64,000 nt of DNA from Clostridia bacterium. GTDB lineage: Bacteria > Bacillota > Clostridia > RGIG6154. Where the stretch lies: assembly GCA_045589295.1 (NCBI GenBank), contig JAZNOU010000007.1:64001-128000 (forward strand). The letters are read 5' to 3'. Of this stretch, positions 31,698-56,091 are shown in pieces (the first letter of the stretch is position 1; each line of letters opens with the position of its first letter). A model generated the notes under the pieces. That model did not search any database and was not told the origin of the DNA. It worked only from the letters and a program-made list of their open reading frames with translations. The position numbers were made by a program, and so were the translations under genes.

Positions 31698-31703
31698 AAA
31701 CTC

Positions 31704-31795
31704 GAATATCGGGGAGCCGTAGTATCGGCTGAGAGGAAACACAAAGTTTCGACCCGTCAACCTGATTTGGATAATGCCAACGTAGGGAATATTTC
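31704..31795 (+). ncRNA. TPP riboswitch aptamer
   Basis: GGGGAGC...GCTGAGA...GACCCG..AACCTGAT.TGGATAATGCCAACGTAGGGA consensus, directly upstream of a thiamine S-component gene. Confidence 0.95.
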
Positions 31796-31807
31796 TGAAA
31801 TGTAATT

Positions 31808-31841: not shown

Positions 31842-31902
31842 GAGATAGCCAAAAAATTTATCCGTTCAGGCGTACAAAATACACTTTGAAAGGATGTTTT
31901 TT

Positions 31903-32541
31903 ATGAAAAACAACACAAAAAAATTAGTTACGTCTGCAATGTTAATCGCAATCGCGGTAGTTTTATCTTTGCTGACACCATTTAATCTGCCTTTTGGCGG
32001 AGGAATTACTCTTGCAAGCGGATTGCCGATCATAATAATATCATTTATGTTTGGCACAAAATTTGGTCTGTTCTCTGCTTTTATCTACAGCCTCTTACAA
32101 ATGGTTACAGGAATGAACACCGTAGCATCATTCTTTTTGCCCGGTGAAAGCCAAATGGTACTTTGGAAGGCAATTACAGTATGTCTGCTTGATTACATCC
32201 TCGCCTATACAGTTTTGGGTCTTGGAGGCATTTTTAAAAACAGATTCAAAAATAACTCTGTTTCAATAATAATTGGAACAATTTTCGCACTTTCTTTGAG
32301 ATACGTAATACATATAATTTCTGGTGCTGTGTTCTTTGGTGCTTGGGCTGAATGGTTTTTCACACAAGACGGCTTCTACAAAATCGGTGAAACAATTTTA
32401 AATACTTTTTCAGGCACTTCCCTATCAGTTATTTATTCTATCTTCTACAACGGGCTTTATATGATACCTGAAATTTTGATTACCGCAGTTATTGCCCCAA
32501 TTGTATATAAAATTATAAATGCAAGTAAATTTTTAAAATAA
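31903..32541 (+). CDS. thiT: Energy-coupled thiamine transporter S component ThiT
   Basis: AMLIAIAVVLS, PFGGGITL, LLDYILAY, HIISGAVFF, YSIFYN; TPP riboswitch upstream. Confidence 0.92.
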   Translation: MKNNTKKLVTSAMLIAIAVVLSLLTPFNLPFGGGITLASGLPIIIISFMFGTKFGLFSAFIYSLLQMVTGMNTVASFFLPGESQMVLWKAITVCLLDYILAYTVLGLGGIFKNRFKNNSVSIIIGTIFALSLRYVIHIISGAVFFGAWAEWFFTQDGFYKIGETILNTFSGTSLSVIYSIFYNGLYMIPEILITAVIAPIVYKIINASKFLK

Positions 32542-41975: not shown

Positions 41976-44900
41976 TTAATTAGAAGATGCACAAATCTGA
42001 TAGTACGCCCAATGATCTTTTGGAACGTCTGGGAATGTGCATACATTATCTGTTGCAACTTCTTTTTTCAAAACTCTGTTTAAGATAGTAACAGCTTCAG
42101 CTCTGTTGATAACTGCATCAGGCCTGAAATTACCATCTTCATAGCCCATTATCCAACCATTTTTATATGCAGTTGCAATATTTTCGAACGCCCAGTGCGA
42201 ATCATTAACATCACCAAACGTTTGTTCTGGCTGAGTGTTTGTAACCATTCTTGAAAGAATAGCAGCAAACTCAGCTCTTGTAACCGCTTTTGTTGGACGG
42301 AATGTCCCATCATCATATCCTTTGATTATTCCTTTTGACGCAAGCGTTCTAACTTGCGTGCTGTACCACTCATCATGTGGAATATCAACAAAACTTGTTT
42401 CATTTTCATAAGCGATATCTATAAGCAAGCGATAAATCATAACAGAAACCTCTGCCCTTGTAACACTATTAGCAGGATTAAAGTTACCTTTGTCATCACC
42501 TTTGATAAACTGAATAGAAGGATCAGTATTTAGTACTTTTGCTATTTCAAAATTGGGTTCAGGCTCGGGGATTTGTTCTTTTTCCTCGTCTTTTTCCTGT
42601 TGCTTTTCTTCTTCAGTTTTTTCTTCCCATGCAGCATATAGAGTCATACCAGCTTTTAAAACACTGTCAAAATTGTATTTATTTCTCAGCGCTTTATCTA
42701 TATACCAGCCAGTAAACTTATATCCTTCCTTTACAGGGTCAGCAGGAGCAGAAATTTTACCGCCAAGTTCAGCTTTTATATTATCAACCTTACTTCCTCC
42801 ATTTGAGTCAAATTTAACGGTTAACTGAACAGGACCGCCGCCACCGCCTCCGCCACCGCCGGCTCCTCCACCGCCGCCTGAAACATTCCATCCGGCATAA
42901 AGAGTAATATCTGCGGTAACGATAGAATTTGCATCAATTTTTGTACCTTGTTTTCCTGCTGATGTATACCAGGCATCAAATGTATGCCCTGTCTTTGAGA
43001 ATGTTGAAACTGCAGGTAAAACATATGTTTGGCCATAAGCAACTGTTTTGCTTGCAACCCCCACTACTGTTGCATCCTGATAATCAAATGTTACTGTATA
43101 ACTCCTCAAACTTTGACTAAACTGTGGATATATCTCAAGATTCATAATAACATTGTTAAATATCTTATCCCAACCTGTAAACGTAAAATGGTACTGCTCA
43201 GTTGATTCTTTAGTTGGAGGCTGTGGCAAACTTGCACTGCCCTGATATTTTATAGACTGCGTGTCAAGAACTTCTCCCGCTGCATTATAGAATTTAACAA
43301 CATACAAATTTCTATTAAAATATACCTTTAATTCAGTAGTTTCATCTATTGCCACCAATGCAGAAAGCAAGTTGTCTGCATTTTGAGTATCAAACGAAAA
43401 GCCCTGATAATTTTTAATCGGAGCACTAACCTCACTGCCAGCAACAGCATATTCTGTAATAGTTTCTGCCCACGAATATGTTCCATCTAAATTTTCTTTG
43501 TAATAACTTACCTTGTAAGAAGGCTTTTCCCAATACGCATAAATTGAAATATCATCTATAACAAGATCACTTGATGAAATTGGTAGTCCTTCGCCGTTTG
43601 GTTCTGTAAACCAACCCCTAAAAATATATCCTGTTTTTTCAAACGTTGCTCTGTCAGGGATAATTACATTAGCACCGTATTCTAAAGTGTTGCTGTATAC
43701 ATCACTATACACAATCGCTCCCTGATAATCGTAAGTAATTTCATAACTACGTACTGTTCGATTAAACAAAGGATAAATATCAAGATTTTGAGTTACATTT
43801 GTAAACGCTTTATCCCAACCTGTAAATGTATAATAATATTGCGGTGTTGATGCCTTAAAAGGTGATGTTGGTTCTGATGCATCCCCCTCAAATCTAACAA
43901 GCTGAGTATCATAAACATTTCCAAGGCCTTCCGTGTCATCATAGAATTTTACGATAAACTCATCACGTTCATAATAAACTCTTAAAACAGTTGTTCCGTC
44001 TGATGCAACTTCATCGGACATAAAACTTAAGTTGTAATCAACTTTAAATCCTATATAATTGTACGGAATAACAGAAACAGTTTCTCCTGCGTCTGCATCA
44101 TATGTCTCGGTTATATCAGGTGTATTTGAATATACACCATAAACGTCCTGTTTATAATGTTCAACAGTATAAAGCGGTCTTTGTGACCAATAAGCATACA
44201 GAACTATATCAGAACTAACTGTAATGGCAGTGGCTCTGTCACCCGCCCCGTACGGTTCAGTAAACCAACCAACAAATGTATATCCGTCTCTGCTGAAAGT
44301 GCTCTCATTTGGAACAATAATATTTGCCTCATATTTGGCACTTGAATACACCATTCCAGAAACAGTAGCATCCTGATAATCAAATACTATATTATAAATT
44401 TTTCTGTTATAATGCGCTTTAAGCTGGGTACTACCATCTGCTTTGACTACATCTGAAAGAATGTTTTCAGAATTTATGCTATCTAATTCAAAACCTTCGT
44501 AAAATTTAGACGGTGCTGTAACTGTACTTCCTTCCAAACCGCTCAATGTTTCTAATTCAGCAAGTGTGTATGTACCATCTAAGTTTTCTTTGTAGTAACT
44601 TACCTTGTAAGAAGGTTTTTCCCAATACGCATAAATTGTCATTTCTCCCGTTACTACATTGCTTGTTGTAATTTCTGTTCCCTCACCATTTGGCATTGTA
44701 AACCAACCTTTGAAAATATGTCCTGTTTTTTCAAAAGTCTGTTCTTCGGGTAAAACAACATTTGAACCGTATTCAATTGTATTGCTTGCTACTCCTACAC
44801 TTGTTGCTCCTTGATAGTTATATGTTATTGTGTATTTTCTTAAACTTTGGCTATACTGCGGATAAACATCAAGGTTTTGCACTACATTTGTAAATTCTTT

Positions 44901-46898
44901 ATCCCAACCTGTAAATGTATAGTCATACTGCTCAGTTGAGGCTTTTGATGGTGCTTGAGGCTGAATTGCACTGCCCTGGTATTTTACAGTTTGTGTATTA
45001 TGCACTCCACCTTCTGCATCGTAAAATTTTACTGTATAAAGTTTTCGTGAGTAATACAGTTTTAATGTATTTTCACTCCCTGCTGCACCTTGGTATGATG
45101 GCACTCTGTCTGCATGTGAAGTATTTTCTACAAAACCTTCATACGTTAAAGGTGTTGCTGTTGCCGTCTGTGAAGATTCAAGATAAAACTGTGTTGTTGC
45201 GGATTCATCCAAATAATATGTTCCGTCAAGATTTTCTTTGTAGTGGTTAACAATATATTTCGGCTGTGAAACCCATTTTGCATATATTGTTACTGTACCT
45301 TGAACTGTATCATTTGTTTTAACTTTATCACTTTCGTCAAAAACATCTGAATAATACCATCCGGCAAATTCAAAATTTGTCTTTTCAAATGTATTTTCGT
45401 CCGGGAGAACAATTTTTTCACCATACTCAACTACATTGCTTGCGATTCCGACAGTTGTTGCACCCTGATAATCGTAAGTTACGGTGTAGCTTCTTAAAGT
45501 TTGACTATACTGTGGATAAATATCAAGATTTTGTACTACATTTGCAAATTCTTTATCCCAACCTGTAAATGTATAGTCATACTGCTCAGTTGAGGCTTTT
45601 GATGGTGCTTGAGGCTGAATTGCACTGCCCTGGTATTTTACAGATTGTGTATCAAGAACTTCTCCTGTTGCATTATAGAATTTTACTGTATAAATATTTC
45701 TGTCGTAACGTAATTCCAATACAGTTGAATTATCGGCCAAGACATTTCCCGATGTAATACTTTCAGCTTGATTAAACGTAAAACCCTCGTATGTATTGGG
45801 AATAGCAGTTACATATTTATTTTCATCTGAATATTCTATCTTTTTATCCAAAATTTGTTCTGAGTATGTACCATCTAAATTTTCAAGATAATGTTTAACT
45901 GAATATGTTGGTTTTTCAACCCAATAAGCGTATATTTCTAAATTATTGTCGACAACCGTATCAGAAGTGATCTTTTCACCTTGCCCGTTTGGTTGTGTAT
46001 ACCAACCTTTAAAAGTATAGTTAGTTTTACTGAAAGTTGTTTCATCTGGAACAGGGACTACACTTCCGTATTTTGCAGTATTGCTTGAAATACCAAACTG
46101 GGTTGCTTCCCCGTAATTGTAGATAACATTATAAGTTCTAAGCTTATAATAACACTTAAGAACTAAACTTCCGTCCATTTCAACTATGCCGGTTCTAATA
46201 TTTCCGGCGGATGAATCATACAAATGACTATCAAAATTCTTTCGTGTAGCCGAAACAGAACTTCCTACCGGCGCAAAATATGTTTCAGAAACGATTTCAT
46301 ATTCACCGTTTAAAAGTTCTTTATAGTGTTCAACAGTATATATTCCATCCGCATTTATAATATTAAAATCTAGCGGTGCATATCCATCTTCATTGGCATC
46401 TAAGTCAGAGGGATCATATGTAAAAAGCTCAATTACTTCAAATTCACACGCAAAAAATCTTGCATCCGCATCCAAGACTTCAAAATCTATACTAAAAATA
46501 TCACCAGTTGCTGCCAAATTCATATTATACATATTAGTTACACCAACTGCAGTAATATAATCAAGGTTAGAAATGTCCTGACTTCCCAAGCCATCAGAAT
46601 TACTTACAATGTCATCCATATAGCTGTCATACAATTTTTTGTCAACAACAGCAGAGTAAGATGATTCATTGTAAATGGGTCTGAATTTTGATTTATCATA
46701 TTTTAACGCCACAACATAAGAAGCCAGTCCAGGATTATCCTCTATTGAAACAGTTGCTGTAACCTTATTGCTTATAAATTCACTTGTTGTTACTTTAAAT
46801 TCAAGGGTACCCTCCGCACTAACCGAAATAGAAAATGCTAAGCACATCGTAAATATTGCAATTAATGTTATAACTATGCCGGTTGCCCTTTTAATCAT
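41976..46898 (-). CDS. Large cell-surface protein: cohesin-like domain, InlB B-repeat/Flg_new-type repeats, poly-Gly linker, three SLH domains
   Basis: Signal peptide, ALKYDKSKF...GDIFSIDFEV beta-sandwich, repeated F.GWY...YA.W and FTGWDK modules, C-terminal VTRAEV/VTRAEF/INRAEA SLH motifs. Confidence 0.9.
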   Translation of the reverse strand: MIKRATGIVITLIAIFTMCLAFSISVSAEGTLEFKVTTSEFISNKVTATVSIEDNPGLASYVVALKYDKSKFRPIYNESSYSAVVDKKLYDSYMDDIVSNSDGLGSQDISNLDYITAVGVTNMYNMNLAATGDIFSIDFEVLDADARFFACEFEVIELFTYDPSDLDANEDGYAPLDFNIINADGIYTVEHYKELLNGEYEIVSETYFAPVGSSVSATRKNFDSHLYDSSAGNIRTGIVEMDGSLVLKCYYKLRTYNVIYNYGEATQFGISSNTAKYGSVVPVPDETTFSKTNYTFKGWYTQPNGQGEKITSDTVVDNNLEIYAYWVEKPTYSVKHYLENLDGTYSEQILDKKIEYSDENKYVTAIPNTYEGFTFNQAESITSGNVLADNSTVLELRYDRNIYTVKFYNATGEVLDTQSVKYQGSAIQPQAPSKASTEQYDYTFTGWDKEFANVVQNLDIYPQYSQTLRSYTVTYDYQGATTVGIASNVVEYGEKIVLPDENTFEKTNFEFAGWYYSDVFDESDKVKTNDTVQGTVTIYAKWVSQPKYIVNHYKENLDGTYYLDESATTQFYLESSQTATATPLTYEGFVENTSHADRVPSYQGAAGSENTLKLYYSRKLYTVKFYDAEGGVHNTQTVKYQGSAIQPQAPSKASTEQYDYTFTGWDKEFTNVVQNLDVYPQYSQSLRKYTITYNYQGATSVGVASNTIEYGSNVVLPEEQTFEKTGHIFKGWFTMPNGEGTEITTSNVVTGEMTIYAYWEKPSYKVSYYKENLDGTYTLAELETLSGLEGSTVTAPSKFYEGFELDSINSENILSDVVKADGSTQLKAHYNRKIYNIVFDYQDATVSGMVYSSAKYEANIIVPNESTFSRDGYTFVGWFTEPYGAGDRATAITVSSDIVLYAYWSQRPLYTVEHYKQDVYGVYSNTPDITETYDADAGETVSVIPYNYIGFKVDYNLSFMSDEVASDGTTVLRVYYERDEFIVKFYDDTEGLGNVYDTQLVRFEGDASEPTSPFKASTPQYYYTFTGWDKAFTNVTQNLDIYPLFNRTVRSYEITYDYQGAIVYSDVYSNTLEYGANVIIPDRATFEKTGYIFRGWFTEPNGEGLPISSSDLVIDDISIYAYWEKPSYKVSYYKENLDGTYSWAETITEYAVAGSEVSAPIKNYQGFSFDTQNADNLLSALVAIDETTELKVYFNRNLYVVKFYNAAGEVLDTQSIKYQGSASLPQPPTKESTEQYHFTFTGWDKIFNNVIMNLEIYPQFSQSLRSYTVTFDYQDATVVGVASKTVAYGQTYVLPAVSTFSKTGHTFDAWYTSAGKQGTKIDANSIVTADITLYAGWNVSGGGGGAGGGGGGGGGPVQLTVKFDSNGGSKVDNIKAELGGKISAPADPVKEGYKFTGWYIDKALRNKYNFDSVLKAGMTLYAAWEEKTEEEKQQEKDEEKEQIPEPEPNFEIAKVLNTDPSIQFIKGDDKGNFNPANSVTRAEVSVMIYRLLIDIAYENETSFVDIPHDEWYSTQVRTLASKGIIKGYDDGTFRPTKAVTRAEFAAILSRMVTNTQPEQTFGDVNDSHWAFENIATAYKNGWIMGYEDGNFRPDAVINRAEAVTILNRVLKKEVATDNVCTFPDVPKDHWAYYQICASSN
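42834..42878 (-). repeat. GC-rich GGN codon tract encoding G5-A-G9 linker
   Basis: Direct reading of the sequence. Confidence 0.85.
43483..44638. repeat. 64-bp near-identical direct repeat (43483-43546 vs 44575-44638, 3 mismatches)
   Basis: Both copies encode IYAYWEKPSYKVSYYKENLDG; offset 1092 bp. Confidence 0.88.
44892..45643. repeat. 98-bp exact direct repeat inside the surface-protein gene (44892-44989 = 45546-45643)
   Basis: Base-by-base comparison; offset 654 bp. Confidence 0.92.
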
Positions 46899-52971: not shown

Positions 52972-54135
52972 TTAGTATACATCAAAATGTCTTACTGTGT
53001 CAATAATATTCAGGAATTTTTCTACCTGTTTTTTTGTATTAAAACAGCTTAGTGATGCCCTCAAGCACCCTGTTTTCAATGTGCCGATTGTCTTATGCGC
53101 AAGCATAGCACAGTGCAATCCACCACGCACTGCAACATTATATTTTTCGCTCAAAATATTGGCAATTTCAACACTATCCTTCCCTATAATATTGAACCCC
53201 ACAACACCTGTTGCTTTTATGCCTTCATTTTTCGAATACACACAAATATTTTTCATAGAATTCAATCCGTCAATCATTGTTTCGGCAAGCATATTTTCGT
53301 ATTTTTCAATGTTGTCTATACCAACATCTTTAATAAATTTTATCCCCTCACCTAAAGCACCTATTGCCGGCGCATTTTGTGTCCCTGTTTCAAATCTGTC
53401 GGGCAAAATTTCAGGCTGAATTAAGAGTTCTGAGCTACTACCGCTCCCCCCTTCAAACAAGGTATCAAGCTCCAACCCCTTCTTAACATACATTACACCT
53501 GTCCCTTGAGGTCCAAACAATCCTTTGTGTCCCGAACATACCAAAATATCAATATTATTTTTTTGCACATCAATATCAATATGCCCTGCAGATTGCGACG
53601 CATCCACTGCAAAAACAATATTACCTTTTTTAGCTATTTCACCTATTTTTTCTATATCCGCAATTCTACCATTAACATTAGAGACGTGGTTAATTATTAT
53701 CATTTTAGTTTCAGGGGTAATAACGCTTTCTAAATCTTCAAAGTATCCGTTTTCATTTTCTTGTGCAACAGAACACTTTACTCCTTTTTGAGTAAGTTTG
53801 TAAATTGGCCTTACAACTGAATTGTGCTCATATGGGGAAATTATAACGTGGTCATTGTTATTCAAAACCCCTTTTATTGCAAAATTAAGCCCCGTTGATG
53901 CATTATTTACAAAACAAATTTCTTCTGGTGATGGTATATTAAAAAGTTCACTCACCAAAATTCTTGTATCAAAAATAACATCACTTGCTCTGTTTGCAAG
54001 CAAGTGACCTCCTCTTCCAGCGTTGCCGCCGGCTGTTTTCATAACTGAAATTATTTTGTTGTAAACTGCCTCAGGTTTCATATACGTTGTTGCACTATTA
54101 TCCAAATATATAAGTTTTTCAGTCAATTTTCTCAT
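52972..54135 (-). CDS. Class V PLP-dependent aminotransferase / cysteine desulfurase-like
   Basis: IYLDNSATT, EHNSV, DASQ, SGHKGL (PLP Lys), RGGLHCA (persulfide Cys). Confidence 0.92.
   Translation of the reverse strand: MRKLTEKLIYLDNSATTYMKPEAVYNKIISVMKTAGGNAGRGGHLLANRASDVIFDTRILVSELFNIPSPEEICFVNNASTGLNFAIKGVLNNNDHVIISPYEHNSVVRPIYKLTQKGVKCSVAQENENGYFEDLESVITPETKMIIINHVSNVNGRIADIEKIGEIAKKGNIVFAVDASQSAGHIDIDVQKNNIDILVCSGHKGLFGPQGTGVMYVKKGLELDTLFEGGSGSSSELLIQPEILPDRFETGTQNAPAIGALGEGIKFIKDVGIDNIEKYENMLAETMIDGLNSMKNICVYSKNEGIKATGVVGFNIIGKDSVEIANILSEKYNVAVRGGLHCAMLAHKTIGTLKTGCLRASLSCFNTKKQVEKFLNIIDTVRHFDVY
52974..53003 (-). promoter_or_regulatory. Sigma-A promoter for cdaA-cdaR embedded in the upstream CDS
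   Basis: TTGACA-N18-TATACT within the last codons of the desulfurase gene. Confidence 0.6.
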
Positions 54136-54382
54136 ACTCAACGCGCCCCTTCGCAACAGTTCTTTCAGCATATACACCTTTCACCTGAATGCCGAGTTTG
54201 CTGCATATACCCAGTATATCACCTGTAAGATGTCTTTTTACACGCACACTGTGACTACACCCATTTTTCGAAATAATTTTTGGTGTATGCAATGTCTGAC
54301 AAAAAATTCCGTTTTCTAATGCTAAGCGCTCCACTCTTTTAGCTGCTGTAACAGATGACAGTGCAATTATTGAATAATTCAT
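54119..54382 (-). CDS. DUF3343 family (putative S/Se carrier-like) small protein
   Basis: SVTAAKR, TP..IS..GC motif; coupled to the desulfurase; GGAGG RBS. Confidence 0.8.
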   Translation of the reverse strand: MNYSIIALSSVTAAKRVERLALENGIFCQTLHTPKIISKNGCSHSVRVKRHLTGDILGICSKLGIQVKGVYAERTVAKGRVEYEKID

Positions 54383-54418
54383 ATTATCCTCCCAAACCCC
54401 AGCACTCACGTACATTAC

Positions 54419-54448: not shown

Positions 54449-54473
54449 AAAAAAAACAGCCCCAAAGGAGCTG
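54449..54473 (-). terminator. Intrinsic terminator after purH-like gene
   Basis: Minus strand CAGCTCC-TTT-GGGGCTG-T8. Confidence 0.8.
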
Positions 54474-54477
54474 ATGT

Positions 54478-56016
54478 TTAATTTTTATAATGTGTTATAT
54501 TTGCAGTTAAAAGTGAAATATTGCATTCATTACACTTATTAATCAATTCCTGTTCGATAGGTGTTCCTCCAGGGTAAATAATGGCACAAATTCCATTTTC
54601 ACTTAAAACATCTACAACTCTGATGTCACGTATAACCGAATCAAATGCAACAACTGCTTTGTCACAAATATCACTGCATTTTGAAATTGCAACTTTTGCG
54701 GCATCAGCACCATCATTCTGTGCCTGGCCAACGCCAATCATCTGACCATCTTTAGTAATAACAACTGAACTTGATTTTGTATGCTTAGAAAGTTTCCATG
54801 CAAACAGAAGTTCTTTAAGTTCCTGTTCAGATGGACTACATTGTGTAAGACATTTCAAGTCGTTTTCCTCTAACAATCTGTTGTTAACACTTTGAATAAG
54901 TATACCACCCGAAACACTCTGAACTTCGTTGGTAACCGGAATGTGTTTACTGCTTATTTCAGGCAATTCAAAAAATCTAAGACCTTCTTTTCCAGACAGA
55001 ACTTCTAAACAATCTTCATCATATGATGGAGCAACAATTGCATTTAGAGGATATTTAATAATTTCCAAAGCGGTTCTTCTGTCAACCTCAGCATTTGTAA
55101 TAACAACACAATTTTCAAGTGAGTTAAATTCTCTTTTACAAGCACGCATATACGCTTCATATACACTCTCACTTTCGCCTGCTCCGGAAATATTCCTTCC
55201 TTTTACTGAAATAACGGCAAGATTATCAAATTCTTCGATAACGCTTATTGCATAATCTATATCACTTATACAATTATACGTAAGTGCTTCTCCACCAAGC
55301 TGTTTTACATCTTTTATGCCAATATCATCACTCAAAACATCCCTGTAAAGAGCTGCCGTCTGATGCGTATTTTGTCCGTTTGTAAGGTCCATTGTCTTTT
55401 CATAAGTTAAAGTAAGCATTTGTGGATAACCGTCTGAAATATTTTTGTTGCTGACATAAGAACAAATAAGTGCATCATAATGGCTAATATATGAGAGTGC
55501 TTTAAGACATAGTTCAGTTTTTGTATCTTTAGAAACTTCCCCTTTTTCAGAAATCTCACAAATAACCTTGTCATAGTCTTGGTGATTAACCAAAACTGCA
55601 ACATCTTCAAAATTCTTAGCTGCTGCCCTTAAAATCGCAGCAGTTCCAACGTTAATGTTTGAAAGTGCATCTTTTATATCAGCGCTCTTATTCATAACAA
55701 ATTCTGTTGGAAGTTCAACTACCACAACATCTATAGGCTCCGTTCCAAGTTCCTTCATCTGAAGCATATCTTCTGCATCGGAACGCCTTGCGGATATACC
55801 CATATGAATTTTTGCATTAAGTGTTTCAATAGTACCACCAAGATAGGACTGAGCTGTTGTAACATCAAATGCAGACAAAACTTCCAGTCCACTGTTTTTA
55901 AGAAATTCATAGGTAGTTCCAAGCGCAATAATTTCAAAGCCAAGGTCAGAAAGTTTTTGTGAAAAATCCAAAATATGTGACTTATCACAAACGTCTATAA
56001 GCGCACGTTTTTTCAT
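54478..56016 (-). CDS. purH: PurH-like protein (IMP cyclohydrolase/AICAR transformylase fold) with degenerate active sites
   Basis: Collinear with PurH over its whole length (MKKRALI, RAAAKNF, HQTAALY, IVAP, LLFAWK, PGG), but catalytic motifs are substituted. GGAGG RBS. The symbol denotes homology, not activity. Confidence 0.85.
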   Translation of the reverse strand: MKKRALIDVCDKSHILDFSQKLSDLGFEIIALGTTYEFLKNSGLEVLSAFDVTTAQSYLGGTIETLNAKIHMGISARRSDAEDMLQMKELGTEPIDVVVVELPTEFVMNKSADIKDALSNINVGTAAILRAAAKNFEDVAVLVNHQDYDKVICEISEKGEVSKDTKTELCLKALSYISHYDALICSYVSNKNISDGYPQMLTLTYEKTMDLTNGQNTHQTAALYRDVLSDDIGIKDVKQLGGEALTYNCISDIDYAISVIEEFDNLAVISVKGRNISGAGESESVYEAYMRACKREFNSLENCVVITNAEVDRRTALEIIKYPLNAIVAPSYDEDCLEVLSGKEGLRFFELPEISSKHIPVTNEVQSVSGGILIQSVNNRLLEENDLKCLTQCSPSEQELKELLFAWKLSKHTKSSSVVITKDGQMIGVGQAQNDGADAAKVAISKCSDICDKAVVAFDSVIRDIRVVDVLSENGICAIIYPGGTPIEQELINKCNECNISLLTANITHYKN

Positions 56017-56062
56017 ACAATCCTCCGTTTTCGGCTTCAATAACCTTTATTTAATCTTTATT

Positions 56063-56091
56063 ATTATACTTCAATTCCTTACAAAAGTCAA
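56063..56091 (-). promoter_or_regulatory. Sigma-A promoter for purH-like gene
   Basis: TTGACT-N17-TATAAT. Confidence 0.8.

Follow-up and report, generated by a model that had tools for sequence, protein, structure and literature searches.

What keeps a homologue of the purine enzyme PurH intact when the signature residues of both of its active sites have been replaced? The question is raised by a gene on the minus strand of a 64,000-nucleotide stretch of DNA (referred to here as the window; positions 64,001 to 128,000 of contig JAZNOU010000007.1, assembly GCA_045589295.1) from a Clostridia bacterium. PurH is built of an IMP cyclohydrolase (IMPCH) domain of MGS-like type followed by an AICAR transformylase (AICARFT) domain. 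The gene, located by its open reading frame (ORF), was as follows.

54478..56016, minus strand: gene for a putative PurH-fold pseudoenzyme of 512 amino acids, stop codon included, with no internal stop
Residues ~1-195 of its product: N-terminal MGS-like/IMPCH-type domain
Residues ~196-512 of its product: AICARFT-type domain

A PurH homologue from which both active sites are gone has been kept by purifying selection across species. The window protein is probably a catalytically dead, full-length PurH paralogue, that is, a pseudoenzyme with a non-catalytic role of a binding type, as judged from its sequence, its relatives and a structural model.

The window protein is a full-length PurH homologue

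The preliminary description, made from the letters of the window alone, had called the ORF uninterrupted and collinear with PurH. Indeed, the ORF and its start were confirmed, and full-length profile coverage and a superposed model agreed with the collinearity. The Pfam family AICARFT_IMPCHas (PF01808) matched residues 132-446 with an E value of 1.2e-75 and the MGS domain (PF02142) was detected at 4.4e-8, while positions 1-510 of the 511 in the NCBIfam profile TIGR00355 were covered. HMMER comparison with PurH proteins of known structure gave E values of 1e-72 to 1e-60 over residues 3-510, and the two-domain architecture and the length of PurH (~510 residues) were both present.

An AlphaFold2 model generated from a 31-sequence alignment had a mean per-residue confidence (pLDDT) of 87.4 and a predicted template-modelling (TM) score, pTM, of 0.79. 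Foldseek superposed it on Mycobacterium tuberculosis PurH (3zzm/4a1o) with TM scores of 0.85-0.88 over ~520 columns at 28% identity. The pLDDT fell below 50 only at residues 57-63, which correspond to the one-time GRVKTLHP loop. A search of the ESM Atlas from which PF01808 clusters were left out gave no usable match, and PADLOC placed the window protein in no defence family.

Both active sites have lost their signatures

The motifs were compared at every residue in HMMER alignments with PurH of Campylobacter jejuni (4ehi) and M. tuberculosis (3zzm) and with avian ATIC (1g8m), and in MAFFT alignments. Every replacement named in the preliminary description was seen in both kinds of alignment. 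In the IMPCH domain SVSDK was replaced by DVCDK, STGGT by ALGTT, GRVKTLHP by GTIETLNA, NLYPF by ELP-T and IDIGG by INVGT. In the AICARFT domain (R)YGENPHQ was replaced by TNGQNTHQ, KHxNPCG by KGRNISG, KSN by KSS, GQxxR by AQNDG, SDAFFPF by FDSVIRD and RHF by THY. The AICARFT positions that we take to be Arg208, Tyr209, His268 and Arg589 of the human enzyme were replaced (RY by TN, KH by KG), and Lys267 was kept as Lys272. Among the IMPCH residues Lys66, Tyr104, Asp125 and Lys137 (human numbering; PMC3261824), three were lost in the alignment to avian ATIC, Lys66 being Glu63, Tyr104 a gap and Asp125 Asn122; Lys137 was kept as Lys134.

When 11 patterns representing the PurH consensus were tested on 151 proteins (the window protein and its 150 best library matches), at least 8 patterns were matched by 121 of the 151 and none by the window protein (0/11). 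From its sequence, the gene product would be expected to lack PurH activity.

Degenerate copies form one clade within the family

Full-length homologues were detected in 13 of 18 genomes of the family, representing five of its six genera (g1 to g6), and in 12 of the 13 good-quality genomes. The gene was carried by every genome of g1 (4/4, the source genome included), g2 (2/2), g5 (2/2) and g6 (2/2) and by three of four in g4, where the genome without it is 65% complete. It was found in none of the four g3 genomes, and a search of g3 for a PurH-like remnant gave no match, only the desulfurase cluster described below being present.

All of the family copies were degenerate, each genus in a different way. 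The KH dipeptide, for example, read KG, KH, KR/KG, NN and GE/GD/GK across the five genera, and the GRVKTLHP loop was deleted in the copies of g5. In quick trees the family copies were monophyletic, with SH-aLRT support of 100 in two trees; the expectation that orthologues would form a distinct clade with losses of the same kind was thus borne out, motifs being lost throughout. A clade profile run against 1.84 billion representative proteins recovered five clusters at 575-787 bits, the next match (484 bits) being canonical, and a word-indexed search gave seven clusters at 72-79% identity before a drop to 42%, at which point the match was canonical PurH. Close relatives came from metagenome-assembled genomes of uncultured Clostridia or Eubacteriales, one of them from goat colon, and the DNA runs that held the gene were animal gut metagenomes by their records.

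Eight other full-length PurH-like proteins in the library (P0156, P0215, P0202, P0250, P0195, P0267, P0171 and P0179) matched only 1-5 of the 11 motif patterns, and the IMPCH core was deleted in two of them. All eight fell outside the clade of the window protein in the tree, so degeneration of PurH seems to recur.

The source genome encodes split purine enzymes

The source assembly (1.54 Mb, 97% complete) was searched for a second, canonical purH. No canonical full-length copy was found; the only PurH-related places were the window ORF and one on a second contig, C3. The latter lies in a pur operon with the order purE-purM-purN-PurO-like-AICARFT-purD-FGAM synthase. The stand-alone AICARFT of this operon, 394 amino acids long, scored 683 bits against NF005492 (cut-off 415) and keeps the motifs KHVSP, GQQSR, SDAFFPF and RLFHH. 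The PurO-like IMP cyclohydrolase gene (C3 12028-12744, minus strand) scored 228 bits against PF07826 and 67 bits against archaeal PurO models (cut-off 150), a value so far below the cut-off that the gene was assigned to a bacterial PurO-like subfamily. For purF, purC and purB only sub-cut-off TIGR matches were obtained in this genome, and a complete pathway is not claimed.

Split systems of this kind, purV together with purO, have been described (PMC6486802), and such a pair is present in the pur operon of the source genome. According to Cruz et al. (2019, PMC6486802), purV and purO anticorrelate with purH in bacteria, the three occurring together in one bacterial operational taxonomic unit. 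Here, in contrast, a full-length purH homologue stands beside the pair, and degenerate copies are not mentioned in the part of that paper available to us. A stand-alone AICARFT was also found in 12 of the 13 carriers, the exception being G013 (85% complete). Among 23 relatives in the class outside the family, six had only the full-length form, 14 only the short form, three neither and none both.

Could the window protein be a bifunctional PurH that still works, evolves quickly and serves as a backup for the split enzymes? It passed the cut-off of NCBIfam NF002049 (411.4 bits against 402), and Lys272 and Lys134 are kept. However, it failed the cut-off of TIGR00355 (389.6 bits against 528) and matched none of the motif patterns, Lys66 is changed to Glu, Tyr104 is deleted, His268 is changed to Gly, and none of Arg208, Tyr209 and Arg589 is retained (residues as listed in PMC3261824). 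Full-length and split forms together were found in none of the 23 class relatives, as would be expected from the anticorrelation reported in PMC6486802. A working backup enzyme is therefore highly improbable. Since the NF002049 cut-off was passed, automatic annotation and metabolic models may credit these gut Clostridia with a working purH.

The preliminary description had proposed that the protein is retained for a non-catalytic role, for instance by heterodimerizing with a canonical PurH. Retention without catalysis accorded with the lost sites and with the purifying selection described below. The heterodimer was not supported in the form proposed, there being no full-length canonical PurH in the genome with which to pair. 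In a modified form of the proposal, a dead subunit would pair with the working AICAR transformylase, poison or tune the shared sites and so set the levels of ZMP and ZTP. The transformylase region of PurH does dimerize, with the other chain contributing to the pocket (PMC3239186; PMC12605026), and the stand-alone enzyme accompanies the gene in nearly all carriers, as noted above. The working enzyme, however, belongs to another subfamily (NF005492); its alignment to the window protein covers 163 residues at 29% identity and a further stretch of 35 residues, a similarity too slight to make a conserved mixed interface likely. In addition, the split system operates without a counterpart of the window protein in genus g3 and in 14 of the 23 class relatives, and the gene never adjoins pur genes in the five genera. 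The absence of a pur gene nearby, stated in the preliminary description, was confirmed among the 26 window ORFs scanned (30.2 to 63.4 kb). An Rfam scan of the window detected no purine or ZTP riboswitch, the sole match being a thiamine pyrophosphate (TPP) riboswitch 22 kb from the PurH-like gene. Pairing with the working transformylase thus appears improbable.

The gene is maintained by purifying selection

All 13 copies were free of internal stops, despite identities of only 33-38% between genera. The ratio of nonsynonymous to synonymous substitution rates (dN/dS), estimated roughly by the NG86 method, was 0.048-0.197 in 12 within-genus pairs, compared with 0.025-0.077 for the real transformylase in 11 pairs; the anticipated value below 1 was thus obtained. 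In the least saturated pair dN was 0.051 and dS 0.87, and a domain-wise analysis indicated that both domains are constrained. At 12 ORF sites that varied among strains, as read from contigs of four DNA runs, eight changes were synonymous, four non-synonymous and none an insertion or deletion (pN/pS ~0.14). In substitution-only neutral simulations (2000 per comparison), no reading frame stayed open, even at within-genus divergence.

The gene has nonetheless evolved rapidly compared with the transformylase. Within genera its identity was 73-84% vs 92-93% for the transformylase and between genera 33-38% vs 73-81%, the genus stems measured 0.73-1.15 changes per site vs 0.04-0.14, and its dN was three to four times faster than that of the real transformylase of its own genome. 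Long stems of this kind, the freeing of half the conserved columns and the absence of the gene from g3 might suggest a pseudogene that has drifted as a relic since the split enzymes displaced it. However, the 13 open frames at 33-38% identity, the dN/dS values of 0.05-0.20, the failure of every one of 2000 simulated frames to stay open, and the retention of promoter-like boxes and ribosome-binding sites in all 13 copies make a drifting relic virtually untenable. The preliminary description had argued against decay into a pseudogene, and this was upheld.

The dS of the PurH-like gene exceeded that of the transformylase in 10 of 11 genome pairs (for example 0.87 vs 0.34), one g2 pair being reversed. 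Weaker codon bias or lower expression of the PurH-like gene may account for the higher value.

Constraint falls on the fold rather than on the pockets

The clade was compared column by column with 10 canonical PurH proteins. The canonical set had 194 columns with at least 90% conservation; in the clade, 97 of these were free, 37 were kept and three were switched. Ten columns gained conservation, and the gained and switched columns formed no motif. At 149 columns nine or more of the 10 canonical proteins have a hydrophobic residue, and there 1264 of 1490 clade cells were hydrophobic (85%), whereas in 84 conserved polar and Gly/Pro columns 404 of 840 clade cells were identical (48%). These proportions support the earlier view that the hydrophobic scaffold was kept while functional residues were lost. 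Only one stretch of 30 columns reached the conservation of canonical PurH. This segment, residues 144-172 (~55501-55587; DY..V..EI...GEVS..TK), was conserved between genera to the same degree as among canonical PurH proteins (ratio 1.01). The clade proteins were also more acidic, with net charges of -20 to -33 and pI values of 4.45-4.87 compared with -8 to -18 and 5.16-5.86 in canonical PurH, which fits a loss of basic phosphate-binding residues.

The pattern of constraint is that of a fold retained without its pockets and not that of a re-tooled active site. With half of the conserved columns freed, the catalytic residues differing by genus and few positions newly conserved, it points to a pseudoenzyme and not to an enzyme with a new activity.

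The remaining alternative is a neo-functionalized enzyme or a small-molecule binder with a rebuilt pocket, which is related to the earlier suggestion that the protein binds a different ligand. ForH (6NKO), a diverged homologue of the N-terminal domain of PurH that matched the window protein with an E value of 4.5e-16 and at Foldseek rank 22, offers a precedent. Presumably ForH is an active enzyme of formycin biosynthesis; it differs from the window protein in being a single domain of 216 residues. Nucleotides or bases are common ligands of the deaminase-like fold (PMC3239186), purifying selection is strong, and the AICARFT motif positions of g1 are more conserved than average, which could reflect a residual pocket function. 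Nevertheless, pocket residues are not conserved between genera, and the 10 gained and three switched columns without a motif are few. Neither site has retained its phosphate-binding loops, net charge has become more negative, and the model is least confident at the one-time catalytic loop (57-63). The suggestion of a different ligand was thereby weakened, and a rebuilt pocket seems unlikely.

Several observations weigh against reading the window protein as a pseudoenzyme under purifying selection. In addition to the passing of the NF002049 cut-off, ancestral residues persist: Lys134 (equivalent to Lys137) and Lys272 (equivalent to Lys267), and also Asp125 in four of five genera. The AICARFT motif positions of g1 varied less than the rest of the protein (14/46 vs 203/437; Fisher p 0.04), and residues 144-172 have stayed at the level of conservation seen in canonical PurH. 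Values of dS were saturated (0.9-3.2) in 11 of the 12 pairs, leaving YN00 usable for one of 12 and making the dN/dS ratios rough. The strain test consisted of 12 variants from low-depth contigs, and one of the runs was possibly the source of the window itself. Genus g3 does without the gene in all four genomes, one of them 96% complete, and the gene neighbourhood yields no partner.

Comparison with known systems and a proposed role

With bifunctional PurH/ATIC (3ZZM/4A1O, 4EHI) the window protein has in common the two-domain architecture, the length and the fold. It differs in that the signatures of both sites are replaced, in lying outside a pur operon, in being more acidic and in evolving faster. 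Pseudoenzymes are well known as a class, and the literature collection that was searched yielded no description of a PurH that is dead or a pseudoenzyme.

Loss of the catalytic sites with retention of the fold and of selection implies that the protein most likely acts by binding and not by chemistry. In the proposed course of events, the pur operon of the family ancestor would have encoded a stand-alone AICARFT and a PurO-type IMP cyclohydrolase, which performed the last two purine steps. Released from catalysis, the full-length purH would then have lost from both sites the residues that bind nucleotide, phosphate and folate. The gene itself would have been retained, together with the PurH fold and length, a housekeeping-type promoter, a ribosome-binding site and strong purifying selection. 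The window protein is probably still a dimer, and our best guess is that a PurH-like dimer may scaffold or regulate a macromolecular partner.

A non-catalytic function has been described for an archaeal PurH. In the ribosome dimerization factor MRDF of Methanosarcina acetivorans, a PurH dimer with empty active sites joins two 50S subunits together with aEF2 (PDB 9OU7; PMC12605026); MRDF is also mentioned in PMC13324472. The window protein matched 9ou7 in both sequence and fold, with a TM score of 0.66, a weaker match than that to M. tuberculosis PurH. Unlike the window protein, the archaeal PurH keeps the canonical motifs and is the working enzyme of its cell, and it needs aEF2. No observation in the present analysis supported a ribosome link of the Clostridia protein. 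A complementary distribution with HPF, used as a test of a ribosome role, was not seen either: 12 of the 18 genomes of the family encode HPF, all four of g1 among them. The window protein is also strongly acidic. E. coli PurH is reported among RNA-associated proteins in a preprint (10.64898/2026.07.23.740326). Apart from the archaeal 50S dimerization, the literature search found no non-catalytic role of a prokaryotic PurH.

By analogy with the archaeal dimer, PurH might have an old second, non-catalytic job, and the gene might be kept here for that job alone after purV and purO took over the chemistry; we regard this as distinctly doubtful. If true, the Clostridia family would represent a natural separation-of-function experiment in which conservation within the clade marks the surface that matters, residues 144-172 being alone in matching real PurH in conservation. 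The second role would then be isolated from catalysis as no mutant of a working PurH allows, and would give a handle on PurH in non-metabolic settings such as the archaeal ribosome dimers.

Signals flanking the gene

The following signals accompany the gene.

56022..56026, minus strand: ribosome-binding site GGAGG, 5 nt ahead of the ATG at 56016
56063..56091, minus strand: sigma-A-type promoter-like site, TTGACT-17-TATAAT, matching the consensus at 11 of 12 positions
54449..54473, minus strand: terminator-like hairpin (7 pairs, loop of 3; hairpin 54473-54457) with a T-run (T8), directly past the stop codon
56153..56180, minus strand: terminator-like hairpin (12 pairs) of the upstream tyrS, separating tyrS from the PurH-like gene

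The GGAGG sequence named in the preliminary description was confirmed. An in-frame TTG lies upstream of the ATG, at 56040; the aligned Met is the start in all 13 orthologues, each of which has a comparable purine-rich ribosome-binding site upstream. Visual reading of the upstream sequences found -35/-10-like boxes ahead of all 13. The gene had also been credited with its own promoter and terminator. Both sites are present as sequence matches, but they are consensus matches only. The promoter scan gave 11 promoter-like sites vs 8.3 +/- 3.2 in shuffled sequence, so that the promoter site alone proves nothing. Base composition and codon bias of the gene were similar to those of its neighbours. 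The gene is presumed to be expressed.

Gene neighbourhood and other features of the window

Two genes lie immediately downstream of the PurH-like gene.

54119..54415, minus strand: Se/S-carrier-like protein (PF11823)
52972..54177, minus strand: cysteine desulfurase family protein (TIGR01977, 436 bits)

This pair is found 3′ of the PurH-like gene in g1 and g6 and also occurs in g3, where that gene is lacking. No neighbourhood was conserved across the five genera, and in none of them did pur genes adjoin the PurH-like gene. In all three g4 genomes that carry the gene (loci L018, L020 and L021), a gene for a Na/Pi cotransporter with a PhoU domain begins 10-12 nt past the PurH-like stop codon, a spacing at which the two are probably co-transcribed.

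The Se/S-carrier and desulfurase pair (52972-54415, minus strand) also adjoins cdaA-cdaR-glmS (L014, L015, L117). The TPP riboswitch detected in the window (31700-31805, plus strand; 75 bits vs a gathering threshold of 54.3) is followed by a gene for a ThiT/YuaJ-type thiamine transporter (31894-32541, plus strand). A 1640-residue surface protein with Listeria-Bacteroides repeats and S-layer homology domains is encoded at 41976-46898 on the minus strand.

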